Virus record (IMG/VR): IMGVR_UViG_3300005607_000407
Length of the DNA stretch: 35,625 nt
Strand: one strand, 5' to 3'
DNA from: a virus
A program made the translations under genes and the position numbers. Positions 1-21,054 of the stretch are shown here, one piece after another. Under the pieces are notes generated by a model. That model saw only the letters and a program-made list of their open reading frames with translations. It made no database searches and was not told where the DNA came from. Position 1 is the stretch's first letter. Each line of letters begins with the position of its first letter.

Positions 1-369
1 ATGGCACAGGAACAAGTTACCACACAGGCTCGAGTGTCATCAGATAGCCATCAATCTCCAGCTAAAGACAAGCTTGATGATCATATAAACAAGTTGTCGT
101 TTGACCTGGTATATCATGCTGAACAACATACCCTCAAAGGCTATTTCAATACATTTTGCGCAGAGTGTATTTACTGGGCCGCCAAGGTGGCTCAACACCC
201 AGAGGTCTGGCAAGAAGAATATGCAAAAAGTCAGGCCCGCTACCTGCGAGCTATCCAGCCTGAAATCATAAACTATTGCATTGCAAAAATCAACGAAAAC
301 TACAATCTGCCTCTGAAGGCGCGTGAAATGACAGTGCAGGAATACCTGCAGGTGGCCGGTCAGCAATGA
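1..369 (+). CDS. Hypothetical protein (first early gene)
   Basis: 122-aa ORF coupled to the next gene by an ATGA overlap. No recognisable motif. Confidence 0.65.
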   Translation: MAQEQVTTQARVSSDSHQSPAKDKLDDHINKLSFDLVYHAEQHTLKGYFNTFCAECIYWAAKVAQHPEVWQEEYAKSQARYLRAIQPEIINYCIAKINENYNLPLKAREMTVQEYLQVAGQQ

Positions 370-1220
370 CTGACAAGAAGCTGATCGCCTTCCACGGCAA
401 GCAGGCCGTCAAGGACCTATACATCGCTCGTATGAAAGCCCACATGGTCGCAGACGAGCTAATACAGGGAACAGGATGGGCAAAGCGGGGAGCGGGAAAA
501 TATCAAGGTTGTGCAGTCGGATGCACTGTTAACAAATACGACCACTTCGCATACGAGACAGAATTGGGTATGCCCGCTGCAATAGCGCAGATCGAGGATA
601 GCATATTTGAGCATCTAAAATGGGAGCAAGCCAAGCAATGGCCGCTGCGCTTTCTTGAAGTAATTCCAGTCGGTGCAGACCTATCAAGAGTATCAGCGCA
701 ATTTCAATACTGGTTGATGTTAGAGAATCTGAAACATGAAAAGTTTTGGCGAGAACATGACAAGAAAAAAGAATATACAGACAAAGTTGTGGGTGCGATA
801 AAGCAAGTTGCTGAATTGCTGAAGAAATGGGCTGAGACAGGATTGATAGACGAGTCTGCTGCTAGGTCTGCTGAGTCTGCTGCTAGGTCTGCTGCTAGGT
901 CTGCTGCTAGGTCTGCTGCTAGGTCTGCTGCTAGGTCTGCTGCTAGGTCTGCTGAGTCTGCTGCTTGGTCTGCTGCTTGGTCTGCTGCTGAGTCTGCTGC
1001 TAGGTCTGCTGAGTCTGCTGCTAGGTCTGCTGCTTGGTCTGCTGCTGAGTCTGCTGCTAGGTCTGCTGAGTCTGCTGCTTGGTCTGCTGCTTGGTCTGCT
1101 GCTTGGTCTGCTGCTAGGTCTGCTGCTTGGTCTGCTGAAAATGAATTTTACATCAAAATCTCTAACAAACTTTTGGAGCTTTTGTCGCAAGCTCCGGTCA
1201 TGGAGGCGAAGTCTAATTGA
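366..1220 (+). CDS. Phage-type protein with SAA(R/W/E) tandem repeat
   Basis: N-terminus (GCAVGC..YETELG..LEDSIFE..WPLRFL..IPVGADLS) resembles a widespread uncharacterised phage family that carries Ala/Ser/Trp repeats. 95-aa repeat block. Confidence 0.85.
   Translation: MTDKKLIAFHGKQAVKDLYIARMKAHMVADELIQGTGWAKRGAGKYQGCAVGCTVNKYDHFAYETELGMPAAIAQIEDSIFEHLKWEQAKQWPLRFLEVIPVGADLSRVSAQFQYWLMLENLKHEKFWREHDKKKEYTDKVVGAIKQVAELLKKWAETGLIDESAARSAESAARSAARSAARSAARSAARSAARSAESAAWSAAWSAAESAARSAESAARSAAWSAAESAARSAESAAWSAAWSAAWSAARSAAWSAENEFYIKISNKLLELLSQAPVMEAKSN
855..1139 (+). repeat. Coding tandem repeat: 25 units of TCTGCTGCT(AGG/TGG/GAG) or TCTGCTGAR
   Basis: 20 twelve-nt units and 5 nine-nt units with identical codon choice throughout. 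Confidence 0.97.
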
Positions 1221-1708
1221 GTCAGCAATCACGGCCACTCTGCCCACCATTTCAGAAGACTAACGAGAATGGTCGATACTGGGCAAAGACAGACGACCTT
1301 GGAAAACTTCCTGCCGAACTTGTATCTAAACTGGCCGTTTCACTCAATTCGCCAGGCGGTGAGTGGATAGAATTTCAAGGATACTTTTACAGAGCTGAGG
1401 CCAGCAAGGACGGCAAGAGCAAGTTTTTCGTCCAAAAATCGAAAGAAGAGCTAGAGGCAGACAAGAACAGGCAGCAGGGAAGAGGATTTAAGAAATTTGG
1501 TGGAGGTCCCAGACATCCCACGATAGAAGCTTTCGATGTGGCCACCACGGTGCAGGAAGTGAACGCTCTCATCCTGTCAGGCTTCCAGCCAGTCTGGGGT
1601 GAAAATGGCCTGCAGGTAGGAACATTTGCGAAGAAAGTGGCCGCTGATGCACCCGAAGCTGACGTGATAAACGGCCTGTTCATGGTAAAGCCTAAAAAAT
1701 CAGATTAG
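1217..1708 (+). CDS. Hypothetical protein (TTG start)
   Basis: 163-aa ORF, TTGA overlap with the upstream stop. Confidence 0.7.
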   Translation: MSQQSRPLCPPFQKTNENGRYWAKTDDLGKLPAELVSKLAVSLNSPGGEWIEFQGYFYRAEASKDGKSKFFVQKSKEELEADKNRQQGRGFKKFGGGPRHPTIEAFDVATTVQEVNALILSGFQPVWGENGLQVGTFAKKVAADAPEADVINGLFMVKPKKSD

Positions 1709-2032
1709 GTGATTTTCATGCAATCGAAATCAGAGGAAGAAGTATTCTCCGAGTCTAACATAGTGAAAAAACTGGCTGAAATCGATCTGAGATTGAATAC
1801 GATAAGAGCGGTGGCCGCTGAATCGCAGAACAGGCAGGAGCTGGCCGTTCTGGATGCGGCCACTTTTGCAATCGATATCGCTAGGGCGCATTTCTACAAG
1901 CTGGAAAGGGAGCAGCTAAAAAAAGACCTACTCTGGCTTCACGATTTTCTAACCGACCCTAATCAGCTAGAAAACCTGGGTGGTCTAATAGCCGCTAAAA
2001 GATTGTTTCATGACATTGTAAAGGTGTTATGA
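1709..2032 (+). CDS. Hypothetical helical protein
   Basis: 107-aa ORF abutting both neighbours. GTG start at 1709 or ATG at 1718. Confidence 0.7.
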   Translation: MIFMQSKSEEEVFSESNIVKKLAEIDLRLNTIRAVAAESQNRQELAVLDAATFAIDIARAHFYKLEREQLKKDLLWLHDFLTDPNQLENLGGLIAAKRLFHDIVKVL

Positions 2033-2965
2033 ATGGTTGAAAAGAAGAAATTCGATTCGCTGGAGATACTGCTCGACAAGGCGGCTCTTGTCATCAAAAA
2101 GGCTCCCACTCCGCAGGCTGCAATTGATGTGTTGCAGGAGCTAGCGGCAGATCTGGAAACAGAGAAGCTGGTGGCGACAGAGGATATCTGTTCATTCCTC
2201 ATCTCCAAACTCGCTGAAAAAACCGGCAAGAACGAGAGGTGGTTTAGGAAATATCTCGATGCAAAGTACAAACACTCTCAACAGCAAGAGAAGAAGAAGA
2301 AAGAGAAAGATTCTGAACTGAAAAAGCGGGCAGAAGTGGCCGAAAATGAAATCTGCAAAAGAGAGGTCTGCGGCCACAACCGAGCTAGTCATGGTGATGG
2401 CGGCCGCTGTCATGAGAAGAAATGTCGCTGTACGCTATTTCTCTCCGAGCTGGATAGGACCATAGTAATTGATGATGGCCGGCCACTTTTGCAACAACTC
2501 CTGTATGGCAAGGAACTGCCAGAGGACGATCCGCATCGTCCAGTTCAGCTGGCGCTAAAACAGTATAGAAAAGATGCAGAACATTACGACAAGCTGGCAA
2601 ACGACTGGAAGCTTGCAAGAGACAATGCTCTCGACAGGATAGAAGAGCAGAAAAAAGAAATTGCTAGGCTAGAAGAGGAGCTAGCGACAAGGGCATCAAA
2701 AGAGGATTCTGAGAAAATCGACCTCTTGAAGTGCCAGATTGAAGAGTACAAAGCAGAAGTGGCCGATCTGAAGGACCAGCTGGCAAAAGCTCAGTTCACC
2801 ACAGCGGATAAAATCCTCGACTTTTGGATCTTTGTCCCTCGCAAAAAAGTAGGTGAAATAGCGGCCACTATCGACAAGATGAACTGGGACAAGAAGCAAT
2901 CAGGCTTTTCGATTAGAACAGATGGCAAGTTTGCAACAGGATTCAAGGTTGGAGAGCCAACATGA
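2033..2965 (+). CDS. Coiled-coil protein with Cys/His metal-binding cluster and possible N-terminal HTH
   Basis: CKREVCGHNRASHGDGGRCHEKKCRC motif and long charged heptad regions. Confidence 0.75.
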   Translation: MVEKKKFDSLEILLDKAALVIKKAPTPQAAIDVLQELAADLETEKLVATEDICSFLISKLAEKTGKNERWFRKYLDAKYKHSQQQEKKKKEKDSELKKRAEVAENEICKREVCGHNRASHGDGGRCHEKKCRCTLFLSELDRTIVIDDGRPLLQQLLYGKELPEDDPHRPVQLALKQYRKDAEHYDKLANDWKLARDNALDRIEEQKKEIARLEEELATRASKEDSEKIDLLKCQIEEYKAEVADLKDQLAKAQFTTADKILDFWIFVPRKKVGEIAATIDKMNWDKKQSGFSIRTDGKFATGFKVGEPT

Positions 2966-3459
2966 CCGTTTTTTACGGCGAAAAAATCGAAGTGGTGGCC
3001 GTCAATCTCGAAACACAAACGGCCACTTGCAAAATATCGATGGTGGAGATAGACGGCAGGGATATGGATACTCAAGCTGCTATGAGCATGTTAGGTCCAG
3101 AAGAGCAGAAGAAATTGCAGAAAGAGCTTGCCAGGCGCAAGGCCAAAATCGAGAAATACAATCCCTCCATGTCTCCGAGCAAAAACAATAGCAAATTCGG
3201 CGGATACGGCGGTTCGAGAGAACGGGAATTACCGCTCTCGAAGCTGCTGAGTGGCCGTGAAAAGGCCGAGCTGCGCAACATCATGCGCAGGGTCAGGAAA
3301 GGACACACAGCCGAACTCATGCGCTACTACGGCACAACAAGCCTGAATGAAATACTCGAAAAATTCTACTCAAGTCTAAAGAAAAATCCTCGCATCAGGA
3401 GAGTGGTGGGGATTGATAGCACGGGATGCCTGTGCATGGAGCTACGGACGATAAAATGA
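2962..3459 (+). CDS. Hypothetical basic protein
   Basis: 165-aa ORF with ATGA coupling at both ends. Confidence 0.7.
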   Translation: MTVFYGEKIEVVAVNLETQTATCKISMVEIDGRDMDTQAAMSMLGPEEQKKLQKELARRKAKIEKYNPSMSPSKNNSKFGGYGGSRERELPLSKLLSGREKAELRNIMRRVRKGHTAELMRYYGTTSLNEILEKFYSSLKKNPRIRRVVGIDSTGCLCMELRTIK

Positions 3460-3668
3460 GTGGAGTGGCTGAACCAGCAGAGATGGTCAAGTTCAAACCG
3501 ATTTCGGAGATAGAAGAGCAACGCAAGCAGCTCGAATCAATCAGAACTGATGTGGAGAAAAAATTGATGGAGCTTGACCATATTGCCAAGCAAATGAGAG
3601 AGCAAGAACAGAACATCAAGTATGCTTCAGACATCATTAATGAAAAGCTGGGCGACATTCTGGAATGA
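3456..3668 (+). CDS. Small coiled-coil protein
   Basis: ATGA overlap at 3456 preferred over the track start at 3426. Heptad-rich. Confidence 0.7.
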   Translation: MSGVAEPAEMVKFKPISEIEEQRKQLESIRTDVEKKLMELDHIAKQMREQEQNIKYASDIINEKLGDILE

Positions 3669-4078
3669 CTGAAGGCGAACGACACTCCAAAGCTGTTGCA
3701 AGAGTCAAAACAATGTTGATACTCGAAAACTACCACATCTACGAAAATGACTATTCGAGAGGCTGGGGTGGCTACAAATTTCCGACAATAATGACAGACA
3801 AAGGTCCAAAAGGATGGACGGCCGACATTTTCGTTCAATCGAAAAGTGGCCGTTGCTTTGTTGTAGAGATAGACGGCCACCTGGCAGGCCAGGGCCACTT
3901 TAGCAAACACAACCAGATTGACGACGATTTCAGAGACGAAACATTGCAAAAATTCGGCGTAGCGACAGTCAGGCTCGACGTGGATTGGCTAGTGGGCAAA
4001 GAGGCGCAAAGTGACGAGCAAATCATGCGAGAGATAAGGCATTGGCTCGACAAGAAATTCCAAATTTGTCTAAACTAG
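3665..4078 (+). CDS. DUF559 / Vsr-like (very-short-patch-repair fold) endonuclease
   Basis: WTADIF..FVVEIDG..H..D..RDETLQKFGVATVRL matches the DUF559 pattern (ADF..VIEVDG..H..D..RD..L...G..V.R). Confidence 0.85.
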   Translation: MTEGERHSKAVARVKTMLILENYHIYENDYSRGWGGYKFPTIMTDKGPKGWTADIFVQSKSGRCFVVEIDGHLAGQGHFSKHNQIDDDFRDETLQKFGVATVRLDVDWLVGKEAQSDEQIMREIRHWLDKKFQICLN

Positions 4079-4083
4079 TATCC

Positions 4084-4284
4084 ATGGCAAAGGCGGTTGG
4101 ATGCAATGGCATCTGTCTGCAATACAAAACCAGTTACAAGTGGATTGAAGATGATCACTGCTATTGCGGACACTGCGCAGTACATATGGTTATACCACGT
4201 TTACAACTTCGCTGCCACTGCTGTAATCGCAAATTGCACAGACGGTCGCACAGATCCTCGCACAGACAAATCAAAAGGATTTAG
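4084..4284 (+). CDS. Small Cys-rich Zn-binding protein
   Basis: CNGIC..CYCGHC..CHCC followed by a basic tail. Start uncertain (TTG 4066 or ATG 4084). Confidence 0.7.
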   Translation: MAKAVGCNGICLQYKTSYKWIEDDHCYCGHCAVHMVIPRLQLRCHCCNRKLHRRSHRSSHRQIKRI

Positions 4285-4293
4285 CTAGCTAGT

Positions 4294-5094
4294 TTGAGCC
4301 TCGAAGGTTACTCTGAAGAATTTCTCAAGCAGATGCAGGCCGACTACCAGCTCTACACGAGGGAAGAGCCTGCAGAGTTCAGATCGGCCACCACTTTGGG
4401 TAAACAACTCTACAAGGCAGAAGATGTCAAGAAGGTGGCCGATGAAGTGATTCAAAAACTCGGCCACTTTGTCTACCAGTGGGAGCTATGCGGCGGTGTC
4501 AGAAGAGGCAATCCGATGGTGCATGACGGCGACTTAGTAGTCTGGCTGAGGTATGATCCAGAACCGGATACGATGATGTCATTCAAGCACAAGCTGGTGG
4601 AGATATTGAAGGACCAGGTGCAGGAGGGCAGCATTCGCTTCATGGATGAAGAGTTGAAAAAGTCAGAAGAGGAGACAGAAGATGATGGCGGTAAAAAGAA
4701 AAAGAGAAAAGCTCGCAAGAGTAAGAATGTGGCCAAGCCTAAAGAGCGGAAAATCTACAAGTTCTGGTACAATTCGATACCGCTTGAAATCAACATTGCC
4801 AAGACGGAGCAGCAGTTTGAAGTCTTGAAATTCATCAGGACGGGAACTGCCGACTTTCACCGCAATCTTCTGATTGAATCACAAAATCAAGGAATGACAA
4901 TTCGCTTCTCACATGACGATGAACTTGACATGGACCTCTATGGTCTCTACGGAGCTGTCCGCTCTTTTGCAGCTGACAAGAAAGGCAGGAGGAAATCAGT
5001 GTGGATTGTCAACCCTGCAAGGTTGGAGGCGTGGCGAGAGCGAGACATCATCGAAAAAGTGTTAGGCGAATATGTCGAGCCTGCCGACAGGTAG
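4294..5094 (+). CDS. polX: Minimal family X DNA polymerase (palm + thumb only)
   Basis: CGGVRRG..HDGDLVV corresponds to GS.RRG..GD.D, IRTGTADFHR to YFTGS..FNR, and ERDIIEKVLGEYVEPADR to E.DIF..LG..YI.PE.R. Confidence 0.88.
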   Translation: MSLEGYSEEFLKQMQADYQLYTREEPAEFRSATTLGKQLYKAEDVKKVADEVIQKLGHFVYQWELCGGVRRGNPMVHDGDLVVWLRYDPEPDTMMSFKHKLVEILKDQVQEGSIRFMDEELKKSEEETEDDGGKKKKRKARKSKNVAKPKERKIYKFWYNSIPLEINIAKTEQQFEVLKFIRTGTADFHRNLLIESQNQGMTIRFSHDDELDMDLYGLYGAVRSFAADKKGRRKSVWIVNPARLEAWRERDIIEKVLGEYVEPADR

Positions 5095-5102
5095 ACTTAT
5101 TT

Positions 5103-5321
5103 TTGAACAACAAAACTAAATGTAAATACTGCCGTCTATGCGGCGGCGAATTTGAGGGAGAAAAGAGAATGGAACATCTGATAGAAAAGCATGGCATGCC
5201 TGCACCGGCGAGTAGGATGATGAAACAATACAGGATATCAAGGTTGTTTTCAAAAAATCCGGTAGACTGGAGCAACCAAATTGAATTCTACATCGGTGGC
5301 AAAAAGTGGGTCGAGAGGTAA
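5103..5321 (+). CDS. C2H2-type zinc-finger protein
   Basis: CRLC..MEHLIEKHG. TTG start at 5103 chosen because the track start at 5001 overlaps PolX. Confidence 0.7.
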   Translation: MNNKTKCKYCRLCGGEFEGEKRMEHLIEKHGMPAPASRMMKQYRISRLFSKNPVDWSNQIEFYIGGKKWVER

Positions 5322-5352
5322 AGATGATGTCTATACCTAGCACTATACCAAG

Positions 5353-5580
5353 TTGACTCTGTATCCGGAGAGGTGTTACAAATGCGGTGCAACAGTATAT
5401 GTCACTCACATCTATCCAGATGAGGACGAGCGCAAGCAAACTGGGATCCAGGTTGATGTGGTCTCTGAAGATTCCACAAAATTTCTTGGCTATGTTTGCT
5501 TTGTATGTGCAGATAAGATACCAAACAGCAGCCTTGGCTATCCACCATGGACTTTGCAAATCTATCCGGAGAAAAAATAA
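5353..5580 (+). CDS. Zn-ribbon protein
   Basis: CYKC...CFVC, TTG start. Confidence 0.7.
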   Translation: MTLYPERCYKCGATVYVTHIYPDEDERKQTGIQVDVVSEDSTKFLGYVCFVCADKIPNSSLGYPPWTLQIYPEKK

Positions 5581-5586
5581 TACAGT

Positions 5587-5742
5587 TTGAATAGCGAGTC
5601 TTGGACTAGAGACAAAGGTTACTCTCAATACAACGTTCTAAGAAGCAAGAGAAGGTGTGTTGTGTGTGGCAAAGAGTTTGCTTCACTGCCAGCTATATTT
5701 CAACATAGGAAGAAATTTGACCATTATGGCAAGAGATACTAG
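5587..5742 (+). CDS. Small C2H2 zinc-finger protein (51 aa, below the ORF-track cutoff)
   Basis: Own translation: MNSESWTRDKGYSQYNVLRSKRRCVVCGKEFASLPAIFQHRKKFDHYGKRY. It fills the gap exactly. Confidence 0.7.
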   Translation: MNSESWTRDKGYSQYNVLRSKRRCVVCGKEFASLPAIFQHRKKFDHYGKRY

Positions 5743-5748
5743 ATAGAT

Positions 5749-6168
5749 TTGGCAAAGCCAGCTAAAGACACAACAAGCATAACCGCCAGGATAGACACGG
5801 CCACTCTGAAAGAGCTGGACGGAGTGGTGGCCGCCCGCACAAAGGAAAGACCAGGCCAAACCTACACGCGCACAGATGCACTGGCTGAAATCCTGCCTCT
5901 TGGCCTCAAGGCTCTGCAAAATCCCAAGGCTCTTGAAGTGGGAATCATAGTTATAAAACATATCGACAAGATAGAGGATCCATTGCTGGTGGCCGAGCTG
6001 AAAGAGCAGTTGAGAGAAAGGCAGATAGTCGATTATGTCGCAAGTCTGACACATGATCAGCTTGACGCTTTAGCCACTATCGTGTTTGACGAGATGCGGC
6101 TGAGAGCAGACAAGCCGCCTCTATCGATGCTGCCGCCTTCTGAGAAACGAGCGCTCATTTTAAAGTAA
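5749..6168 (+). CDS. Ribbon-helix-helix DNA-binding protein
   Basis: TSITARIDTATLKELDGVVA..TRTDALAEIL has the RHH strand-helix-helix pattern. Confidence 0.7.
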   Translation: MAKPAKDTTSITARIDTATLKELDGVVAARTKERPGQTYTRTDALAEILPLGLKALQNPKALEVGIIVIKHIDKIEDPLLVAELKEQLRERQIVDYVASLTHDQLDALATIVFDEMRLRADKPPLSMLPPSEKRALILK

Positions 6169-6190
6169 ACCGCCAAAATCAAGAGCAGAG

Positions 6191-8221
6191 ATGTCAAAAC
6201 AGGAGGCCACTATCGCTGGATGGAAAGACGAATGCGAATACTGGATTGACAACTTTATCGAAGGTGGCCGTCTTGTGTATTTTGAGCAGATGACACAGCT
6301 ACAAACCCTGCAACATCCCGTTTTCAAGGTCAAGCACTATCATCTATCGCCACAGCTGACCACTCTTCTACTGAATGAAGCGGCCACTTTCTTTGAAGCG
6401 ATGAAAGCGGCCATCATCGGCCACTTTGAAACAAAAGGAGAGGTCGAGTTTGTCAATCTTCTGAAGCGCCAGCTAGAGATAGAAGTCTATGAGCTGCCGC
6501 CAGTCAAGCGCCTTGACCGCACAATGCTTGACAAGTTCGTAGCGCTAGGCCCCTGCCAGGTCCACGCTATCGAGTCTCTTCAGCATATCAAGACCAGGCT
6601 AGTTTATCGCTGCTGGCATTGTGGCGAGCTGTCAAGGACAAAATCAAAGTGCGAGCATTGCGAGGAAAAAGACCTTGAAGAAGAAGTGGCCGCCGACAAC
6701 CTGCAAGACCAGCGCTACATCGAGGTCATAGTTTTAGATCAGAATGGAATGGCCACCGACAAATCACTGAAATACTGGCTGGATATTAGGGGCCAGAAGG
6801 CGTTCGAAACGCCGGATTTTGGCGAGACATGGATAGTGTCAGGATTTGTCAGATTATCAAAGAATGAAGATAAGCAGCCAGTCGGCTCTGTGCAGACATT
6901 CTTTCTCTATCTCGAAATTAACAGCATCCAGAAGGTGGCCACGGCCACCAAGGAGAAAGTGGCCGTTACGCCCGAGCTGGTGGCCGTCCGCAAAAAATGG
7001 GTGGCCGACTTGCAGAGGCAGGGAAAAGACGTAGAAGCCGAGCTGGTGTCAAAGCTGGCTCCCTCTATCGTGGGAGAAGACTTGTTGAAACTATCACTAC
7101 TCAGGCAGGCAGTAAGTGGCGCTGTCGAAAACGTGGGAGAGCGGACAGATATCCACATCCTTGTGCTGCGCAACCCTGGCCGAGCTAAAACGGATCTGGC
7201 TATGTACATGTCAGGCCTCACAAGTGGTGGCTATGTCGATTCAGCTGGAGCCTCTGCAGTGGGGTTGGTGGTGGGGCTAGAACCAGACGAGCGAACAAAA
7301 AAGAAAGTGGCCAAAGCTGGGGCCGCCGTATTGTTCAACGGCCACCCAATCTATCTTGATGAGGTGGACAAAATCAAGCGTGAATACCTATCGCAACTCA
7401 ATACACCTCTCGATAAGGGATTCTACCAGGAGACCAAGATATTGAACAAAAGATTTGAAACGGCCAGCCCGTGGGCGGTATTTGGTAATTTCAAGGCTAA
7501 AAAATATGATTCGAAACAGAGTTTAGCCTGGAACATCAATCTGCCGGAGGATTTTCTTGACAGGATAGATCTGTACCATATAGATCCAAGCTCAGCATAT
7601 AATGAAGAGCTGGAAAATGCCATAATGGATGCACAGAGCGACCGCTTTGAAAAAGGGACGGAAAAAATAGTTATCGATCCAGAGCTGAGAGAGCATATCG
7701 CTTGCGCTCGCTCCATCAAGGAAATCAAGTTCGAGTCAGGAGTGAGGGAAGTTTTCAAGTCATTTCAGAAAGATATGAAAAAGCTGGAGCAGGCGTTGGA
7801 TTCCGGCATCAAATTTTCAAACAGGCAATTCAACGGCTTGTGGCGTCAAGCTATCGCTCGTGCAGTATTGCATCTGAGAGATACAGTAACAAAGGATGAT
7901 GCAGAGCAGGCTATCAAGCATGTCACTACAATCATCGCAAAAGTTGGCATAGATCCGAGGACTGGTGAAATTGATTTAGGCGTGCTGACAGGGACGCAGA
8001 AAAGCAAGATGGAGCTACTAAAGGCGTTCAAGCAAATCTTTCTCTTTCTCTGTGCAGGCGACAGATTTGCAGACATTTCACGAGAAAAACTGATAGACCA
8101 GCTGCAAAAGCAGGGTTGGATAAAAAATGTCTACGAAGCTTCAGAGCTGATAGATGATGCAAAAAAACAAAGGATGATAATGGAAACCAGCAAGGATAAT
8201 TTCCGATGGATTAAAGGCTGA
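6191..8221 (+). CDS. mcm: MCM replicative helicase
   Basis: Zn finger CWHC..CEHC, LAPSIVG, Walker A variant RNPGRAKT, Walker B IYLDEVDK, Arg finger FLDRID, sensor-2 SNRQ..LWR, C-terminal winged helix. Confidence 0.96.
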   Translation: MSKQEATIAGWKDECEYWIDNFIEGGRLVYFEQMTQLQTLQHPVFKVKHYHLSPQLTTLLLNEAATFFEAMKAAIIGHFETKGEVEFVNLLKRQLEIEVYELPPVKRLDRTMLDKFVALGPCQVHAIESLQHIKTRLVYRCWHCGELSRTKSKCEHCEEKDLEEEVAADNLQDQRYIEVIVLDQNGMATDKSLKYWLDIRGQKAFETPDFGETWIVSGFVRLSKNEDKQPVGSVQTFFLYLEINSIQKVATATKEKVAVTPELVAVRKKWVADLQRQGKDVEAELVSKLAPSIVGEDLLKLSLLRQAVSGAVENVGERTDIHILVLRNPGRAKTDLAMYMSGLTSGGYVDSAGASAVGLVVGLEPDERTKKKVAKAGAAVLFNGHPIYLDEVDKIKREYLSQLNTPLDKGFYQETKILNKRFETASPWAVFGNFKAKKYDSKQSLAWNINLPEDFLDRIDLYHIDPSSAYNEELENAIMDAQSDRFEKGTEKIVIDPELREHIACARSIKEIKFESGVREVFKSFQKDMKKLEQALDSGIKFSNRQFNGLWRQAIARAVLHLRDTVTKDDAEQAIKHVTTIIAKVGIDPRTGEIDLGVLTGTQKSKMELLKAFKQIFLFLCAGDRFADISREKLIDQLQKQGWIKNVYEASELIDDAKKQRMIMETSKDNFRWIKG

Positions 8222-8606
8222 GTGGCCACCGAACAAGTCCAGCAAGAAAAGCAGAAGGGGCCACGATCCTACTACGGCCGCTGGATAGCCAATCAGCGAG
8301 CTTCTGAAATTCAGAAATGGGGGGGGGCGCTGCCAGGTATGTGGCAACTCAACCTATGACGAGCTAGAATTTGCCCACGTCAAGAAAACTGACCTTTCAG
8401 GAAGAAGCAGCCGTGGCTCTTTCGCTAGGCTCAAGGATGTCAGGAACAATCCAGACTGCTACAGATTGATGTGTGAAACCTGCCATAATGGATTTGACAA
8501 CGAAACAAACCCCGAGATTCAAAAAATCTACAAGGAAATCTTGAAGGTGGCCGAAATTCCCAATCCTCCTACTCCTACACCTGCACCAACGGCCACTTCC
8601 GCCTAG
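8222..8606 (+). pseudogene. HNH endonuclease interrupted by a +1 frameshift in a G9 run (8319-8327)
   Basis: With G8 the frame is open for 127 aa: WGGRCQVCG..LEFAH..N..LMCETCHNGFD (HNH/Zn-finger pattern). It fills the gap between the MCM stop and the next start exactly. Confidence 0.85.
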
Positions 8607-8810
8607 GTGGCCGAGAAAATCTGCATGTGTTGTCAGAGGATTATAAAAAATGGTGAGAATGTCGGCATTTGTAACGACTGTCTTGCTCAGCTGAGAGATG
8701 TGTTTGGAGTCAAGATAAAGCGAAAAGAAGTTTGGTATCGATTATCAGAAAATCCGATTAGATGGATCAAATGCGAATGGAATTTTCAGGGCAGAAAGAA
8801 AGGTTGCTAA
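8607..8810 (+). CDS. Small Zn-finger protein
   Basis: CMCC...CNDC, GTG start directly after the previous stop. Confidence 0.65.
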   Translation: MAEKICMCCQRIIKNGENVGICNDCLAQLRDVFGVKIKRKEVWYRLSENPIRWIKCEWNFQGRKKGC

Positions 8811-8822
8811 CAGAAGACTGAA

Positions 8823-8984
8823 TTGGTAACCAACACAGACAAATTCTACAAAAAGTTCAGGAAGATGCCCTGCCCTGTCTGCGAGAAGCCGATATCGAGA
8901 CATAGTAGAGATGAGGCTATAAAATGCGCTTTCAAGATGGTAGCTGCGCAGATGAAAGCGATGGAGCAGGACAATAACAGTTAG
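8823..8984 (+). CDS. Small Cys/His protein (53 aa, not in the track)
   Basis: Own translation: MVTNTDKFYKKFRKMPCPVCEKPISRHSRDEAIKCAFKMVAAQMKAMEQDNNS. Confidence 0.6.
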   Translation: MVTNTDKFYKKFRKMPCPVCEKPISRHSRDEAIKCAFKMVAAQMKAMEQDNNS

Positions 8985-9176
8985 TTGACCAGGCCAGACC
9001 AAATCCTGTACTCTGTTTGTTGCGTTTTCTGTCACAACAACTACAAGACTACCACTCAGAGAATGAAACGACATTTGCGAGAATGCCCGGGCGTCACCGG
9101 CCATAGAAGCTATCTTTTCAGATGTGTCAGACCAGCTTCCATTCTAGCTTTGCAAAAGCGGAAAGTGGAATATTGA
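8985..9176 (+). CDS. Small C2HC zinc-finger protein
   Basis: CVFC..MKRHLREC motif. Confidence 0.65.
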   Translation: MTRPDQILYSVCCVFCHNNYKTTTQRMKRHLRECPGVTGHRSYLFRCVRPASILALQKRKVEY

Positions 9177-9192
9177 TACACACAGAAACACC

Positions 9193-9222
9193 TAAATATA
9201 ACACTATACATAATGTATAGTG
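9193..9222 (+). promoter_or_regulatory. TATA-like box (TAAATA) plus perfect 21-bp palindrome CACTATACAT-A-ATGTATAGTG (operator O1)
   Basis: 10-bp arms at 9202-9222, 8 nt before the ATG at 9231. A near-identical copy lies at 10151. Confidence 0.8.
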
Positions 9223-9230
9223 ACTATAAC

Positions 9231-9410
9231 ATGCCAAATACCACACAGGCAAACGAAAACAAGTCAAAAGAAGAATTGGAACACAATGCTTTTTGTCCCT
9301 TCTGCAATTCTGAGCGGCTGGGTGTTGATGTTTCAATTCTCGAACCGTCTGCCACTGAGCAGTGGATGTGGTGGGCCAGACATGAAAAGTTCATGGGGGC
9401 AAGACAGTAA
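9231..9410 (+). CDS. Small hypothetical protein (CPFC motif)
   Basis: ATG 9231 preferred because the track start at 9213 lies inside the palindrome. Confidence 0.6.
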   Translation: MPNTTQANENKSKEELEHNAFCPFCNSERLGVDVSILEPSATEQWMWWARHEKFMGARQ

Positions 9411-9646
9411 TGGGTACGAATTGGGATAGATACCGAAACAGCGAACAAGCCGAAATCCCTCCAGCTTTTAGCCACTCTGTCAAGATTGAGCAGACGGGTA
9501 AGGGCGCAAGAATCACTGTACATGTCTTCGCCAGCAGCTCAGAATCTGCAATACAACAGGCGCTGGAGATGTACGGAGCGACGAAAAAGTACCTTGAGCT
9601 GAAAGGTGAGGTAGTGGCCCCTATCGAAGTGGGTAAGAAGGAGTAG
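9410..9646 (+). CDS. Hypothetical protein
   Basis: 78-aa ORF, TAATG coupling. Confidence 0.7.
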   Translation: MGTNWDRYRNSEQAEIPPAFSHSVKIEQTGKGARITVHVFASSSESAIQQALEMYGATKKYLELKGEVVAPIEVGKKE

Positions 9647-9653
9647 ATCACAA

Positions 9654-9875
9654 GTGGCCGAGCATGAATATCACCACGAGGGAGACGGATCGGCCACTAT
9701 CTCCATCAAGGCTCTATCTTTCATCACAGCTCCAAACGGCCAGCGGTCTGTCATCCTTGATATTAATGGCGAAACTATTGTTATGCACGAATGGAGCAAG
9801 AAGGCAAAAACTATAACTGTGGACGCTCAGGTGAAAGCTTCCGGATACATCGAAGTGCTTCCAAGATATGCCTGA
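9654..9875 (+). CDS. Hypothetical beta-rich protein
   Basis: 73-aa ORF with GTG start, in operon context. Confidence 0.65.
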   Translation: MAEHEYHHEGDGSATISIKALSFITAPNGQRSVILDINGETIVMHEWSKKAKTITVDAQVKASGYIEVLPRYA

Positions 9876-10149
9876 GACGAAAAAAGAAAAACAAAAGCAG
9901 AAACAAACCCCAAGCTACCGCTCAATAGCAATAATGACCGTAGTGAAAAAGTGGCCGACTGGCGGATGCTATGCCAGGGTGCCGAAAGATTGGATCGGCC
10001 ACCGAGCGGCCTTCTACCTACCTGATAAAGTGGCCGTTGAAATCGTTCACGGCCTGGGCAAAGACAAGAGCCACGCCTATGTGGCCAGGATCCCCTGCGA
10101 GCTGGCAGGCAAAGAAATCAAAATCGAACTAAAAGATACAATTAAATAG
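9868..10149 (+). CDS. DUF2080/AbrB-like swapped-hairpin DNA-binding protein, internally duplicated
   Basis: VVKKWPTGGCYARVPKDWIGHRAAFY and IVHGLGKDKSHAYVARIPCELAGKEIKIE are two copies of the V...G....VPK.WIG..V pattern. Confidence 0.6.
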   Translation: MPETKKEKQKQKQTPSYRSIAIMTVVKKWPTGGCYARVPKDWIGHRAAFYLPDKVAVEIVHGLGKDKSHAYVARIPCELAGKEIKIELKDTIK

Positions 10150-10171
10150 CCACTATACGTAACGTATAGTG
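10143..10171 (+). promoter_or_regulatory. TATA-like box (TAAATA) plus perfect 21-bp palindrome CACTATACGT-A-ACGTATAGTG (operator O2) upstream of the tRNA
   Basis: Arms at 10151-10171. Differs from O1 by one compensatory base pair. Confidence 0.8.
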
Positions 10172-10195
10172 TCGGGTGCAAGCCCGACAAAAAGC

Positions 10196-10279
10196 GCCGG
10201 CGTCGCCTAATGGTATGGCGAGCGCCCCCTAAGCGCTTGGGTGTTCAACCCCTTAAGGGTTCGAATCCCTTCGCCGGCG
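10196..10279 (+). tRNA. Type II (long variable arm) tRNA with a Ser-like body and anticodon CCT (Arg)
   Basis: Acceptor GCCGGCG/CGCCGGC with G73, D-arm GCC-TAATGGTAT-GGC, anticodon stem AGCGC/GCGCT with loop CCCCTAA, V-arm GGGT/ACCC, T-arm AAGGG-TTCGAAT-CCCTT. CCA not encoded. Confidence 0.92.
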
Positions 10280-10285
10280 CTTAAA

Positions 10286-10307
10286 TCTTTCCTTTCCTTT
10301 CCCTTTC
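10286..10307 (+). terminator. Pyrimidine (U-rich) terminator after the tRNA
   Basis: TCTTTCCTTTCCTTTCCCTTTC directly downstream of the tRNA, typical of archaeal U-tract termination. Confidence 0.65.
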
Positions 10308-10332
10308 AAAAAAGAGAACGGCCACCACTGTG

Positions 10333-10366: not shown

Positions 10367-11332
10367 ATGGCAGAGGCTTATGTTTCTGGAGCTAATTCAC
10401 GACAACCTAATGACATTGAGGCTGAAATCTTTTACCATCTTCAAGAAGCTGGCAACATAGCAAGTCGTGAGCTTGAGTCTGACATCAATCTGAACAACAT
10501 CCAGACAAAAAGCTATCACATCCGTAAGGCGGCCGAAGCTGCAGAGCAGGCAGGGTGGCCGAAAAAAGAAATATCTAAACGACTACTTGAACTGATATTC
10601 AAACACGATTATAACATCAGTCGTAGTCTTGTTTATCGTATTTGCTCACCACTAGGTTATTCCGAATCCGATTCTGAACTAGATCAGTCAAGTCCAATGA
10701 TTGGACAAGAAAATAGTTCTATATATACTGCTTTTGAACAGGAAAACGAGCAACTGATAACACAGATAGAAAAAGAGATCGACATCAAGAAAGCGATCAT
10801 TTCGAAGCTCAGAACATCTGCATTTCTTACAAAGATACCCCGTGAAGAGCGCAAAGAATTACTGTACTGCTACGCAGTTCATAACAAAAATATTGGCATG
10901 GAGTGGGATGGCCGAAAAGACGTTTCTGAAAGACAGTATTTCATTCTATACGAAGCATCAACAGCTGCAATAAATGACAAGGTCACAGAGCTGTACATCA
11001 AGATGGTCAAGGATTGGAAGCCGCTGACAGGCAAGCAATATCACAAACTGAAAGTCGGAATAACAAGAATGATCCACCCGCTTTTTGAGCCGAAGAACCA
11101 ACAGGAGGCGATCGACAGGGGCTTCTACGGAATACAATGCCGGTGTGGCTCCTGGCGTGTCCTGATTGAAAAAGAACCTACGAAGGAATTCAAAGTGCAG
11201 TGTTGCAAATGCCAGCTTATCTTCGAACCGAAGACAGAAACGTTTAGCGCGAAGAACTCTATCATACTGGACGAAAAGATAAACACAGTTCTGACAAACT
11301 ACGATGATTTCAAGAAGAACAACGGCTATTAA
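10367..11332 (+). CDS. Hypothetical protein with possible N-terminal HTH and C-terminal Zn ribbon (candidate late activator)
   Basis: CRCGS...CCKC near the C-terminus. Located between the early and packaging modules. Confidence 0.7.
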   Translation: MAEAYVSGANSRQPNDIEAEIFYHLQEAGNIASRELESDINLNNIQTKSYHIRKAAEAAEQAGWPKKEISKRLLELIFKHDYNISRSLVYRICSPLGYSESDSELDQSSPMIGQENSSIYTAFEQENEQLITQIEKEIDIKKAIISKLRTSAFLTKIPREERKELLYCYAVHNKNIGMEWDGRKDVSERQYFILYEASTAAINDKVTELYIKMVKDWKPLTGKQYHKLKVGITRMIHPLFEPKNQQEAIDRGFYGIQCRCGSWRVLIEKEPTKEFKVQCCKCQLIFEPKTETFSAKNSIILDEKINTVLTNYDDFKKNNGY

Positions 11333-11551
11333 TTTATTGACTGGGTAAGAAATTAGGACTGGTATTTTCACGCTTATCAAGGCCTCGGATAGGATGGTGG
11401 TGGTGGTGGAATGAGCGGTGTTTGAATCGAACTATGATAGGATTGAAAGGTTAACTAACTGGCCTAACATTCCTTTTTTGTTTTAATTATTAGTCAATGC
11501 TCCTTAATTCCCTATAGGGTTCACGCTCAATTCCTCACAGAATATTCAAAA

Positions 11552-11797
11552 ATGCCTGCTTACGACTGGACGACAAATAATCATGAAGGTAGGGGCCTCC
11601 GAAGAGCATTCAAACGGCTAGAAGAAAAGATGGAGTCTGCGCGAGATCCAAAAACGATTGCAGAATTATCAAAAGCAATGGCGTATGTCGCACAAGCAAA
11701 ATCCAACATAGCAAAGAATCATGACCTTGAAAAAAGAGTGCAAGAGCTTGAAAGATTGGCAGGGATGGCGCAGAAGGCAGCGCCAATTCAAAAATAA
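11552..11797 (+). CDS. terS: Terminase small subunit (putative)
   Basis: Small helical ORF directly before TerL, with a DLEKRVQELE coiled-coil motif typical of TerS C-termini. Confidence 0.65.
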   Translation: MPAYDWTTNNHEGRGLRRAFKRLEEKMESARDPKTIAELSKAMAYVAQAKSNIAKNHDLEKRVQELERLAGMAQKAAPIQK

Positions 11798-11830
11798 AAT
11801 AATGAAGTTGTTATTGTTGAGTGAATCAGA

Positions 11831-13342
11831 TTGCTCAGTGAATCACGTGTCAAAAGGCTGGAGGACTATTATTACAGCAACAACAATAAGGTAAGCTGGA
11901 ACGACAAAATCCCTGTTGATTTTGAAAAGTTCTATCGTCTGTTCGGTTTGTTCATCCACCCCGCCACGGGCCTGCCTGTCGTAAGACTTGCAGACTACCA
12001 GTACGAAACCGCAAGGCTGTTCTTTGAGCATAAAAGGCTGCTGGAAGTCAAATCAAACAAGGTAGGTGAGACTTCCAAATGGTCTGTAATTGACTTCCAG
12101 CTTGCCCTTTTTCCAACATCAAATCCGCTGTCGACTAGAGGTTATGATACCCTTGTGATAGCGCAGACAAAGGACCATGCCAAGCAGCACCTGCACGATC
12201 TCAGAAAGGCAATTATCGATTCTCCTGCCTACTCCAAGTATCTGATAAACAAACCAGACGAAATCGCTATCGAGGGCAAAGACCTGAACAAGGTGCTGAG
12301 GGATGAGCAGAGCAAAACCTCAGTGATCTATATTCAAAACCCAGAGAAGCCGACAAGGCCTTCACGCATCATAGCACTGGGAATTGAAAATTATGGTGCA
12401 ATCCTTAGCTGGAAGAGAGTCAAGCACATCCACATGTCAGATATCACAGCATCAGATTCCGATTTCACCAGGGGGATAGATGCTGCAATGACCAGACTGG
12501 CAAATACAAACGGCACCTGCATCATTGAAACCGTGCCAGGAATGCCGGAAGGGTTCGTATACCAAACAGCGCAACACTTCAACCCCGAGACACACAAGCC
12601 CGGGGATTTCTGGGTTGTCAAGGTAACGGCAGAGCAGGCAGTAAAGGCAGGAGTAATCAATCAAGAGTTTTTGGAATCCGAGCGTAGGAACAAGGGAACG
12701 GCATTCGGCCAATTCTATGAATGCATTTTTGGATTCCAACAGGGCAATGTCTTCAAGCTGGAGGATATTGAGGCCTGCATTGCAGCGTATGATCTGGAAG
12801 GTTACAAGACACTAGATTGCAAGCTATTTGTAGATCCCGCTTTTGGTCTTTTAGAACAGAATAGCAAATTCGCCTGGCTTGTTTTGGCATTGTTGGATGG
12901 CAAGGTGCGAGTCTACCACGCTAAGCAATTTACAGGGATGTCATACAATGAATCGATGCAAGAACTTGATTTCTTGCTTTCAAAATTCAATTTTGTCAGA
13001 ATTGGAATAGACGCTGCCAACCCCGTTTTTATCAGGGGCGCAAAAGAGAGAATAGGCGAGAATCCCAACTACGACCAGCTAGAAGAAAAAGAGAGCGAAG
13101 GATGGTGGAAAGTCAAGCCTATGAGTTTTGGGCAGAAGGAAGGACAGGAGTATTTGCAAGCCATCCAATCCCTGGTGTCAGGGCATTACCTCGAGATACA
13201 TCCCGCTTTCGAAGAGCTGATTTTGCAGATGAAGATGGCTGTAACAGATGATAAGGGCAAGCTGGATAAAACAATGAATTCGATGGATCTGTTTGATTGT
13301 TTAAGAATGGGTGCTGCCACTTACAGGGTGGAGAATCAATAA
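11831..13342 (+). CDS. terL: Terminase large subunit
   Basis: DYQ adenine motif, Walker A-like KSNKVGET, Walker B-like IHMSD, FGQFYECIF linker, RNase H nuclease acidic residues (FVDPA, GIDAAN, DLFDCL). Confidence 0.92.
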   Translation: MLSESRVKRLEDYYYSNNNKVSWNDKIPVDFEKFYRLFGLFIHPATGLPVVRLADYQYETARLFFEHKRLLEVKSNKVGETSKWSVIDFQLALFPTSNPLSTRGYDTLVIAQTKDHAKQHLHDLRKAIIDSPAYSKYLINKPDEIAIEGKDLNKVLRDEQSKTSVIYIQNPEKPTRPSRIIALGIENYGAILSWKRVKHIHMSDITASDSDFTRGIDAAMTRLANTNGTCIIETVPGMPEGFVYQTAQHFNPETHKPGDFWVVKVTAEQAVKAGVINQEFLESERRNKGTAFGQFYECIFGFQQGNVFKLEDIEACIAAYDLEGYKTLDCKLFVDPAFGLLEQNSKFAWLVLALLDGKVRVYHAKQFTGMSYNESMQELDFLLSKFNFVRIGIDAANPVFIRGAKERIGENPNYDQLEEKESEGWWKVKPMSFGQKEGQEYLQAIQSLVSGHYLEIHPAFEELILQMKMAVTDDKGKLDKTMNSMDLFDCLRMGAATYRVENQ

Positions 13343-13344
13343 TA

Positions 13345-13674
13345 ATGCCTCCCAGGACCAAAAAACTGCCTGATGATTATTTCAAGATCATCACGGACAA
13401 GTACGATATAGAAAAATTCTGCGATTCTTGCAAACCTATAGAGGTGGTCAAGATGATCTTGAACCCAAAGCGTCAAGGATTCTTAATCTGTCCCCGATGC
13501 GGTGCAGAGGCCTCCATCTTGGATATGAAAGGTCTGACCAAGCTTGTAGACCAAGACGCAGGAGAGCCGCTAGTTTCATTTACTTCTGCGAAGAAAAAAA
13601 ACAGCATTGAACAGCAGATGGAAGACGAGCTCAAAGCGTTGGGATACACGAATATCAGGTTATCGAGGCTCTAG
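13345..13674 (+). CDS. Zn-ribbon protein
   Basis: CDSC...CPRC. ATG 13345 follows the TerL stop. Confidence 0.7.
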   Translation: MPPRTKKLPDDYFKIITDKYDIEKFCDSCKPIEVVKMILNPKRQGFLICPRCGAEASILDMKGLTKLVDQDAGEPLVSFTSAKKKNSIEQQMEDELKALGYTNIRLSRL

Positions 13675-13730
13675 ATAGCTAGCTGACACAAGTTCTCTTT
13701 TCCGCTCTGAAAGTAGTTCCTCCGTTTAGA

Positions 13731-15383: not shown

Positions 15384-15401
15384 TGAGAGAAGAGAAGAGA
15401 A

Positions 15402-16334
15402 ATGAAATTAATTCACTGGATAAACCCGACTGCGGCCACTTCGGGGATGTATTCTTACATTGCTCAGTGTATTCGTGTCGCTAACCAGCTCGGCCACCAT
15501 GCTACCTATGCTTATTGCAACAGGCCTGAGCCTGAACCTGCCGTATTGATGCATTACGGCGCTGTTCTGGAGACAGTGTCCCACAAAACAGCTGAAGAAA
15601 AAGATTGTATCAACATCATTCACTCCGGCATTCCTGCCAACTTTAACAGGTTGCCAAACAAAGTATTCGAAACCCACGGCACACCACGGTGGATCATGAA
15701 AGACTGGGATGCCCTGAGCTATACGTCATTCATGGCAAAGAACTGCTCGCTAGTAGTTACAAGATGGCCGTCACAGGTTCCCTACTGGCAGGCCTTGACT
15801 GACAAGCCGGTGAAGACGATACCACCCGGTGTTGACCTCGAACTATGGAAGCCAGACGGGCCAAAAAAAGAATTCACAAATCACCCGCTGATTCTGTGGG
15901 CAGATACATGGCGTGAGGGACTGAAGGAGCCATGGGAGCTTCTATATGCGTTGAAGATGATAATGCGGGAGATACCATCGATCACTCTCAAGCTGGTCAA
16001 TATCCCTTCTGAAAAAATGGATTTGCTGCACTATTTCATTGGTGTGCTTGGCATCGGATCGGCGATTGAATGGCCTGTCGAAGCTAGAGTGCAGAACATC
16101 GCAGAATACTACAGGACCGCCGATTGGGTATTTTCTGCGCATGGTGAAGGGAGCAATGTAACGTGGGAGGCGCAAGCCTGCGGGGCAAAGATAGGATTTG
16201 GAGATGTGTCATCTGAAGCAATCGCCAGGCAAATACTGAGAGACGAATATGACCCAGCGGAAGAAGAAAAACCTGATCTTCGAAAAACCATTGAATCACA
16301 AGTGAATATTTTTGAAAATCTTGCATGTATATGA
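15402..16334 (+). CDS. GT-B fold glycosyltransferase (GT4-like) 1
   Basis: TIPPGVDLELWKP and YYRTADWVFS..EG..WEAQACGA match GT4 signature motifs. Confidence 0.85.
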   Translation: MKLIHWINPTAATSGMYSYIAQCIRVANQLGHHATYAYCNRPEPEPAVLMHYGAVLETVSHKTAEEKDCINIIHSGIPANFNRLPNKVFETHGTPRWIMKDWDALSYTSFMAKNCSLVVTRWPSQVPYWQALTDKPVKTIPPGVDLELWKPDGPKKEFTNHPLILWADTWREGLKEPWELLYALKMIMREIPSITLKLVNIPSEKMDLLHYFIGVLGIGSAIEWPVEARVQNIAEYYRTADWVFSAHGEGSNVTWEAQACGAKIGFGDVSSEAIARQILRDEYDPAEEEKPDLRKTIESQVNIFENLACI

Positions 16335-17103: not shown

Positions 17104-17110
17104 CCAACCA

Positions 17111-18984: not shown

Positions 18985-18990
18985 GTCAAG

Positions 18991-21051: not shown

Positions 21052-21054
21052 GCG

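Follow-up and report, generated by a model that had tools for sequence, protein, structure and literature searches.

An RGTGGCC word is iterated on both strands through the replication module of a temperate Nitrososphaeria provirus

The 35,625-nt stretch of DNA analysed here (IMG/VR record IMGVR_UViG_3300005607_000407, taken at its full length and called the window) carries one short word, GTGGCCG or its reverse complement CGGCCAC, far more often than chance allows. Look-ups of exact proteins led to larger contigs and revealed that the window is part of an integrated provirus of ~39.0 kb, bracketed by a 22-bp exact direct repeat, ATTCTATTATAATTATCTTGTG, at L023:7535-7556 and L021:3274-3295, both outside the window; these repeats are putative attL and attR sites. 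The element is inserted between genes, with a 195-aa gene on one side and a dehydrogenase gene on the other, and not in a tRNA. All genes of the window lie on the + strand, those of the late part encoding terminase, a portal-like protein, tail tube, tape measure and lectin-fold fibre proteins. To the right of the window are two more genes and then a 460-aa integrase (phrog_1, E 7e-11), beyond which the chromosome encodes malate/lactate dehydrogenase, PurE, ribosomal proteins L18, S5, L30 and L15, SecY and adenylate kinase; the left host flank encodes acetyl-CoA/propionyl-CoA carboxylase subunits, AhpC and LarC. Homologues of the terminase are named from Nitrososphaera, including a gene of Candidatus N. 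gargensis, and the host flank is ~70% identical to genomes of one Nitrososphaeria family. The element is a temperate tailed virus integrated in the chromosome of a member of the Nitrososphaeria, an ammonia-oxidising archaeon. As the window belongs to an integrated provirus, a Nitrososphaeria host is confirmed, as had been proposed (in the form of a Nitrososphaerales-type host) by an earlier reading made from the letters alone, the sequence-only reading. Independent assemblies from other samples carried the sequence at 99.7-100% identity.

Positions 1-10,330 hold 21 GTGGCCG and 18 CGGCCAC, with 14 more copies in the remaining 25 kb, and 38 of these first 39 extend to RGTGGCCG, the exception being the copy at 2371. 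The sequence-only reading had reported these counts, and on recount they and all the coordinates that it listed proved exact, as did a cluster of four copies plus a variant in the linker of the MCM helicase gene (Table 1; three of the copies are conserved in the related virus G001, described below) and two genes that start GTG GCC G (open reading frames (ORFs) at 8607 and 9654). Orientation is balanced over the window, with 26 forward and 27 reverse copies intermixed along it, and the copies are spread over at least 17 unrelated genes of positions 1-10,600, nearly all of them intragenic. That all three reading frames are used held true, but the use is uneven: the central GCC stands in frame as an Ala codon in 37 of the 53 copies, which then encode V-A-x (forward strand) or x-A-T (reverse strand).

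Table 1 Features of the provirus and distribution of the word (positions in the window)
Feature	Position	Strand	Observations
attL/lysogeny region	outside window, left		0 GTGGCCG/kb
Motif-rich replication/early module	1..10600	copies on both strands	40 GTGGCCG/CGGCCAC, 3.8/kb; 54 GTGGCC; syntenic with G001 to 10,296
DUF559-type (Vsr-fold, PD-(D/E)XK) endonuclease-like protein, 137 aa	3665..4078	+	215 nt upstream of Pol X gene; candidate nicking half
Minimal Pol X (Pol beta-like) nucleotidyltransferase, 266 aa	4294..5094	+	invariant CGG-x-RRG...D-G-D; candidate patch filler
Ribbon-helix-helix (RHH) protein, 139 aa	5749..6168	+	ends 23 nt before MCM; phrog_4738 'transcriptional repressor', E 6e-5; candidate reader
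MCM replicative helicase	6191..8221	+	Pfam MCM 1.6e-21, MCM_lid; 14 GTGGCC copies
Densest cluster, MCM inter-domain linker	6935..7007		copies at 6942(-), 6959, 6980 and 7001; GTGGCCAC variant at 6935
tRNA-Arg(CCT)	10196..10280	+	at junction where G001 synteny ends, motif density falls and foreign head module starts
Terminase-portal-head block	10601..23000		2 copies, 0.16/kb, host level; homologous to L031
Neck/tail-tube block	23001..26100		7 copies, 2.3/kb, motif-rich again
Tape-measure/tail-fibre block	26101..34500		1 copy, 0.12/kb, host level
Motif-rich right end, start	34501..35625		3 copies in window

Alignment of all 53 copies revealed further information beyond the seven letters, namely A-rich positions -3 and -2, a purine just before the word (-1) and a base other than G just after it (+1). 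These flank preferences were identical for sense- and antisense-strand copies, and being independent of orientation they belong to the DNA word rather than to a codon context, so that the word in the window is approximately aaR-GTGGCC-G-h. Single-mismatch variants of GTGGCCG were at background level, except for GTGGCCA (10 copies); G follows 53 of the 73 GTGGCC in the window, and three copies in 1-10,600 form the 8-bp palindrome GTGGCCAC.

For the 40 copies observed in 1-10,600, Markov nulls of order 1-2 gave 0.7-1.5, in agreement with the roughly one copy that had earlier been predicted from composition, permutation of codons within genes gave 2.5±1.2, and a synonymous-codon shuffle that left the proteins unchanged gave 8.6±2.2, with none of 1000 shuffles reaching 40. 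Outside 1-10,600 the window held 13 copies compared with 3.5±1.5 expected. The RGTGGCCG 8-mers reached z values of 25-30; one octamer-scale word is over-represented by at least an order of magnitude within 10.6 kb, and the enrichment survives both the Markov and the codon- and amino-acid-preserving nulls that the sequence-only reading had put forward as a check.

Codon choice pointed the same way. Within the early module, 17 of the 21 V-A-(Gnn) tripeptides were coded GTG GCC G, where codon usage predicts 2.3, while nCG GCC ACn served for 9 of the 10 [SPTA]-A-T (0.4 predicted) and nnC GGC CAC for 6 of the 10 x-G-H (0.7 predicted), so that motif-forming codons at eligible peptides were chosen 7-20 times more often than predicted. 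The dipeptides VA, AT and GH were themselves about twice as common as the reversed controls AV, TA and HG, in the early module only; late genes showed a weaker synonymous effect (V-A-(Gnn) 3/17, [SPTA]-A-T 7/24, x-G-H 1/8) and no dipeptide shift. Where a copy was present in one lineage only, it usually came with amino-acid differences (14 of 15 window-only and 7 of 9 G001-only copies); in the MCM protein, for example, T-E-H, N-K-L and V-S-K in one virus are I-G-H, N-G-H and V-A-D in the other. Frame-restricted peptides and re-coding in weakly constrained regions form a footprint like that of uptake sequences. These results show that nearly every peptide able to carry the word synonymously does so, that extra copies are made through amino-acid change, and that the word has been multiplied and kept by a directional pressure that targets the DNA as such, and not codons or peptides, as the sequence-only reading had surmised from the use of several frames; amino-acid-preserving shuffle, codon choice and non-synonymous copies agree on this.

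The copies are also conserved. Between the window and G001, at 76% identity, 12 of 29 alignable window copies (p=0.003) and 13 of 16 G001 copies (p=7e-8) were shared, compared with a background of 18% for all 7-mers, so that conservation goes beyond background, as it does for words of the HIP type (see below).

The host does not share the word. The provirus's own host flanks (23.6 kb, of the same G+C) contained 2 GTGGCCG, or 0.085/kb compared with 3.8/kb in the early module (~44x). Across 237 species-representative genomes of the host family, RGTGGCCG was at or below its reversed-word control, with the densest genome at ~0.17/kb; among 200 class-wide genomes, a few showed a GTGGCCR excess, their RGTGGCCG reaching 0.25-0.3/kb, about twice the control and mostly GGTGGCCG, which fits G+C-rich codon usage. 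Unpublished genomes are among those counted (G132 in the class set; G365, G463-G466, G490, G491, G510, G511, G545 and G546 in the family set), and the conclusion is independent of them. A host-wide signature was rejected by the flanks and by both genome sets, which show that the word is absent as a signature from the host chromosome and the host family and is virus-only; it is no chromosome-wide cellular trait of the HIP type. Of the two outcomes that the sequence-only reading had named as fatal to its inference, neither occurred: the excess outlasted the amino-acid-preserving null, and the host lacks it. In the family genomes RGTGGCCG was mostly under-represented against the reversed word, at ratios of ~0.5-0.8. 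No provirus-like match was found in 400 class genomes.

Related viruses, by comparison, carry the word, and with its absence at that level from hosts this answers the second check proposed from the sequence, a search for the same k-mer in relatives and candidate hosts. G001 is a 35.3-kb IMG/VR contig whose MCM protein is 86% identical and whose synteny with the window extends over 1-10,296, where nucleotide identity is 65-78%; it contains 58 GTGGCCG, compared with 4 copies of the reversed word, plus 59 GTGGCCA. Five further viruses (L004, L006, L007, L028 and L030; MCM 52-55% identical) have 2.3-4.9 GTGGCC/kb, with the next base mostly A, and the palindrome GTGGCCAC occurs 14 times in L006, 12 times in L004 and 8 times in L007, so that the HIP-like palindromic form is a feature of these relatives, the word in the window being mainly asymmetric. 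Given the prevalence of GTGGCCA and GTGGCCAC in relatives, the unit conserved in the lineage is, on this sequence comparison, RGTGGCC(A/G), palindromic as GTGGCCAC in the distant relatives, and GTGGCCG is the window's variant of it; the RGTGGCCG unit named earlier holds for the window and is too narrow for the lineage.

In two other viruses the word is missing. It was absent from L005 (MCM 43% identical, 38% G+C), and a search of L005 for an alternative iterated word that might match its own RHH protein gave only a weak GTGGTAA-type signal (GTGATAA ~5x), which overlaps stop codons and is uninformative. L031, a 21.5-kb locus that shares head genes with the window and has a different early region, had 1 GTGGCC. 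L031 avoids GGCC altogether (23 observed compared with ~70-77 expected; TGGCCA, AGGCCT and GGGCCC zero), which suggests GGCC-directed restriction in some Nitrososphaeria hosts and a strategy opposite to that of the window lineage. Restriction-site avoidance is thus seen for GGCC in L031 and its reverse in the window, where the word is enriched rather than depleted, as expected of the iterated signal that the sequence-only reading had taken it for. Wherever sequence coverage sufficed, the motif-bearing viruses share, among other genes, those for RHH, Pol X and DUF559 (Table 1), which L005 and L031 lack. These comparisons show that the word follows the lineage of a replication module made up of RHH protein, MCM, minimal Pol X and DUF559 nuclease, and its carriers are a clade of temperate tailed Nitrososphaeria viruses sharing one replication/repair module. 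Scans of viral and metagenome contigs with MCM, Pol X, RHH, portal and terminase for further relatives returned only G001-type contigs.

Within the window alone the copies seemed clustered (16 gaps of ≤60 bp compared with 7.9 expected, p ~0.001). Paired or phased sites were rejected, as this clustering was gone once spacing was pooled over five genomes, being near-random with a mild excess at 16-45 bp in mixed orientations. Pooled across relatives, 160 sense and 115 antisense copies were found, with no switch point.

The bias of the copies towards the left of the window, noted in the sequence-only reading, is real and is one of ancestry. Motif-rich and motif-poor blocks alternate (Table 1), and the right end continues for ~1.9 kb past the window to the integrase and attR, with 6 copies in 3.0 kb (2.0/kb). 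The fall in density at ~10.3 kb coincides with the end of G001 synteny. Neither G001 nor L004 has counterparts of the window's structural genes; those for the small and large terminase, portal and head are related to genes of L031 (TerS 73%, TerL 51% identical). In L004 the word is evenly spread over that virus's own terminase and portal genes. An assembly chimera behind the drop was rejected, since two other samples, assembled independently, show the same junction. Because the blocks track the ancestry of the modules, the bias is shown to reflect a mosaic of modules with long or short residence in the motif-bearing lineage rather than a functional gradient, and the motif-free blocks to be recently acquired; relatives carrying the word in structural genes too, the bias is a patchwork and no property of early genes as such. 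The 3' half of the tRNA-Arg(CCT) gene at the junction is 93-94% identical to tRNA genes of several Nitrososphaeria.

Highly iterated words are known from other genomes. The Haemophilus uptake signal sequence (USS) and Neisseria DNA uptake sequence (DUS) are short words at ~1/kb that lie in many coding frames, bend peptides, gather in weakly constrained regions and spread by transmission bias, not through a role in cis. The present word resembles them in its frame-restricted peptide signatures (V-A, x-A-T, G-H) and in re-coding; unlike them, as host traits read by a competence receptor, it belongs to a virus whose host lacks it, and we know of no uptake process for an archaeal virus. In cyanobacteria, which also have variant HIPs, the dispersed 8-mer HIP1 (Highly Iterated Palindrome 1, GCGATCGC) is 15-300 fold over-represented within and between genes, with copies better conserved than codon conservation explains, a sign of selection, and with the function still argued (PMC5861425, PMC4390886). 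Dispersal, strong over-representation and conserved copies are shared with HIP1, as is a true 8-bp palindrome, GTGGCCAC, in the virus relatives. HIP1 differs in being a chromosome-wide cell trait with two orphan methylases, whereas this word is virus-only, tracks no methylase, is asymmetric here and reaches a higher density, 3.8-5/kb. For archaeal tailed viruses of the HF1 group, avoidance of palindromes and restriction sites is usual (PMC7230728). Avoidance of that type is what L031 shows; the window lineage does the opposite and hoards a GGCC-containing word. In the literature we found neither GTGGCCAC nor GTGGCCG tied to a biological signal, only primer sequences.

We tentatively favour the reading that a sequence-specific DNA-binding protein, itself encoded by the module, recognises the word as its site, with the RHH protein as the best candidate, and that the word possibly couples viral DNA to the viral MCM. 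This candidate has an N-terminal ribbon-helix-helix with the beta-strand S-I-T-A-R-I-D. A homologue lies directly upstream of MCM in 7/7 motif-bearing viruses, with the strand S-[IV]-T-A-[RK]-[IV] and the strand-helix-helix pattern conserved in all 7, so that, as in operator arrays, the protein is encoded together with the sites; its gene is probably co-transcribed with MCM. L005, which lacks the word, has a different RHH-like gene and strand at the same position. At roughly 10 bp and asymmetric, the site is of a kind that proteins typically recognise, and a DNA-binding protein is further favoured by the finding that no conserved methyltransferase tracks the word. An RHH dimer (omega of pSM19035; CopG, Arc, ParG) reads a unit of ~7 bp in either orientation, and the word resembles such heptad sites in length, in orientation-independence and in the conserved RHH gene beside MCM. 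The candidate protein would bind the copies and so mark viral DNA as 'own' in the vegetative cycle, and bound copies would recruit or load the viral MCM/replisome or otherwise favour viral over host DNA. Each added copy would give a small advantage, which would account for dispersed single sites in either orientation, for tolerated motif-free blocks and for slow build-up in new modules.

Several points weigh against this. RHH proteins normally bind phased tandem or inverted operator repeats; instead of such contiguous promoter arrays, we found ~50 single sites scattered near-randomly inside genes. Co-occurrence of RHH gene and word is confounded by shared ancestry, all carriers being one clade in which DUF559, Pol X and small proteins co-occur equally. 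A 39-kb replicon should not need ~50 helicase-loading sites. As ~21 kb of the provirus works at host-level density, the benefit per site must be small or not needed in cis. The AlphaFold model of the RHH monomer was of low confidence (pLDDT 56), and a co-variation of strand residue 16 (D or H) with the word's seventh base (G or A), suggestive in five genomes, was lost on adding L028 and L030.

It is also possible, though we hold it more loosely than the binding-site reading, that the clade has a virus-encoded 'self-word' system, writing and/or reading an 8-10-bp identity word of its own. In one version, the RHH-MCM pair would use ~5 sites/kb to steer the replication machinery to viral rather than host DNA; in another, the Vsr-fold nuclease and minimal Pol X would spread the word by biased short-patch conversion. 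In either, the process would re-code the virus's own proteins and gradually 'naturalise' newly acquired modules. If true, either version would give HIP1 or uptake sequences their first virus-borne counterpart for which protein candidates can be identified.

The strongest competitor to a bound site, rather unlikely in our judgement, is a word written by repair (molecular drive), in which the DUF559 nuclease and the adjacent Pol X would make up a short-patch repair that resolves differences towards RGTGGCCR; at heteroduplexes or damage, biased conversion would raise the number of copies without any function, as biased uptake does for uptake sequences. Pol X was identified from atlas features (0.94) and from a PDB profile search whose 12 best hits were without exception to the Pol beta palm (E 0.02-0.15), with a Foldseek top 50 that was all Pol beta/lambda (E ~5e-6, TM ~0.35) on a model used cautiously at pLDDT ~56, and no homologue was found in the 237 family genomes. 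The nuclease was tentatively assigned from the structural atlas, in which 6 of 10 rows were DUF559 clusters (TM 0.59-0.66), and from conserved motifs in the alignment, its Pfam hits to DUF2726 and REase_MTES_1575 being sub-threshold and no PDB sequence match being found. The two genes lie 215 nt apart; G001, L004, L006 and L007 contain homologues of both, and the motif-free viruses L005 and L031 contain none within ~20 kb. Known very short patch (VSP) repair biases oligomer frequencies, and GGCC, at the core of the word, is a classic C5-methylation site; a Vsr-fold nuclease (at fold level) beside a gap-filling polymerase, with a GGCC core, recalls both Vsr/Dcm repair in E. coli and the GGCC-linked T/G repair of archaeal plasmids, and the avoidance of GGCC by L031 suggests GGCC-directed systems in these hosts. 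Patchiness of the word and viable motif-free blocks fit accumulation with residence time rather than a required function, cheap sites are saturated with re-coding mainly in low-constraint protein regions, as for the Haemophilus USS, and two related virus types in one sample make heteroduplexes plausible.

The DISCRIMINATING tests comprised near-cognate word depletion, pooled spacing, shared-copy flanks and synteny-block ends. The signature of a deamination/VSP ratchet was looked for and rejected: near-cognate C->T/G->A words were not depleted (observed/expected 1.27 for GTGGTC, 1.32 for GTGGCT, 1.04 for GTAGCC and 0.92 for GTGACC), and one-mismatch neighbours numbered 1055 compared with 811 expected. 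These counts argue against a deamination-repair ratchet and do not separate selection from conversion-type drive. The flanks of shared copies were at background identity, with no co-converted patches. Unlike Vsr/Dcm, the system has no cognate C5-methyltransferase in the window, and what fills the corresponding slot varies among relatives and goes with GATC instead. VSP repair is known to change the frequency of words by much less than 10-40 fold, and the enrichment here is one to two orders of magnitude larger. The Vsr assignment is by fold similarity only, and co-occurrence is again confounded by phylogeny.

A word linked to methylation, as proposed for HIP1, is unlikely. RGTGGCCR would here be the target of a host or viral methyltransferase with an epigenetic role in lytic-switch timing, strand discrimination or anti-restriction. 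Its core falls within YGGCCR/GGCC, the palindromic form GTGGCCAC is preferred in relatives, which also have methyltransferase genes adjoining MCM, and HIP1 is linked with two methylases (PMC4390886). That slot after MCM, however, holds a Dam-type enzyme in G001, a 201-aa C5 fragment in L004, MT-A70 in L007 and L005 and nothing in the window. A conserved viral methyltransferase was accordingly rejected as a candidate, as none tracks the word among motif-bearing viruses; GATC abundance, not GTGGCC, follows the presence of the enzymes. The host chromosome is unenriched, contrary to what a host orphan methylase would lead one to expect, and the word is asymmetric in this virus.

We consider a Chi-like word very unlikely. 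Such a word would modulate an end-resection or recombination machine, protecting viral DNA or promoting module exchange, and like Chi and KOPS (8-mers read by the DNA-translocating machines RecBCD and FtsK) the present one is a dispersed 7-8-mer enriched against codon expectation, in a mosaic genome; HerA-like (DUF87) or ResIII helicase genes are present in G001, L004, L006 and L007. Chi and KOPS, however, are strand-polar and belong to the host chromosome, whereas this word is nonpolar (26 forward and 27 reverse) and its host unenriched; the window has the highest density even though it seems to have lost the HerA/helicase gene, and the ends of synteny blocks were no closer to copies than chance (p ~0.5, a weak test). 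Of the mechanisms entertained in the sequence-only reading, the Chi-like, methyltransferase-linked and simple deamination-repair versions have lost support. There is next to no chance that the enrichment holds no DNA signal and is a by-product of codon usage, a repeated peptide, base composition, host composition or assembly, since, against the frame bias (GCC in frame in 37/53 copies) and the commonness of VA and AT dipeptides in the early module, the enrichment persists under the amino-acid-preserving shuffle, motif-forming codons are 7-20x above codon-usage prediction, the flanks are orientation-independent, at least 17 unrelated genes carry copies, the host is without the word and independent assemblies carry the identical sequence, and artefact explanations are excluded.

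HIP1 and uptake sequences belong to a rare class, that of highly iterated genomic words, and the function of HIP1 is still argued after 30 years. Here, a compact 39-kb element has a denser word (up to 5/kb), a host clearly without it and a short list of candidates (RHH, DUF559 nuclease, Pol X, MCM) that can be expressed and tested, together with natural controls in the motif-free modules of the same genome and in relatives with the palindrome, without the word or avoiding GGCC. Pressure at the level of DNA can override protein coding in a virus, and the residence time of a module in its viral lineage could be read from the density of the word. Viruses of the hosts, soil ammonia-oxidising archaea, have to our knowledge hardly been studied by experiment.

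Further observations concern other words and genes of these viruses. Window-type and G001-type viruses occur in the same metagenome (L019 and L027, JGI sample 3300005532), making co-infection and recombination between them plausible. GATC is over-represented in relatives with a methyltransferase gene after MCM (for example 91 compared with 50 and 95 compared with 47 expected) and under-represented in the window, without one (27 compared with 41, 67 compared with 97); both the late region of the window and the host flanks are poor in CTAG. Very small Zn-finger ORFs follow one another at 8466-9410, among them a BED-type finger at 8985-9176 (Pfam E 2e-4), and three of the small Zn-finger ORFs (8823-9410) are without the word. 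An 80-aa ORF at 3426-3668 corresponds to the N-terminal end of a ResIII helicase gene that encodes 527 aa in L004, and the same region in G001, L006 and L007 encodes a HerA-like (DUF87) ATPase; judged by these matches, the window seems to have lost a helicase/ATPase gene here. The second commonest 8-mer, GTCTGCTG, is unrelated to the word and stems from a 12-nt tandem array inside one ORF. The ORF at 366-1220, which lacks GTGGCC, contains at 854-1137 a 12-nt tandem array of ~24 copies of GTCTGCTGCTAG, which has 69-81% DNA matches in the chromosomes of many Nitrososphaeria genomes. The copy number varies between assemblies of the same provirus, L023 being ~145 nt shorter, and the ORF may encode a host-derived, fast-evolving repeat protein.

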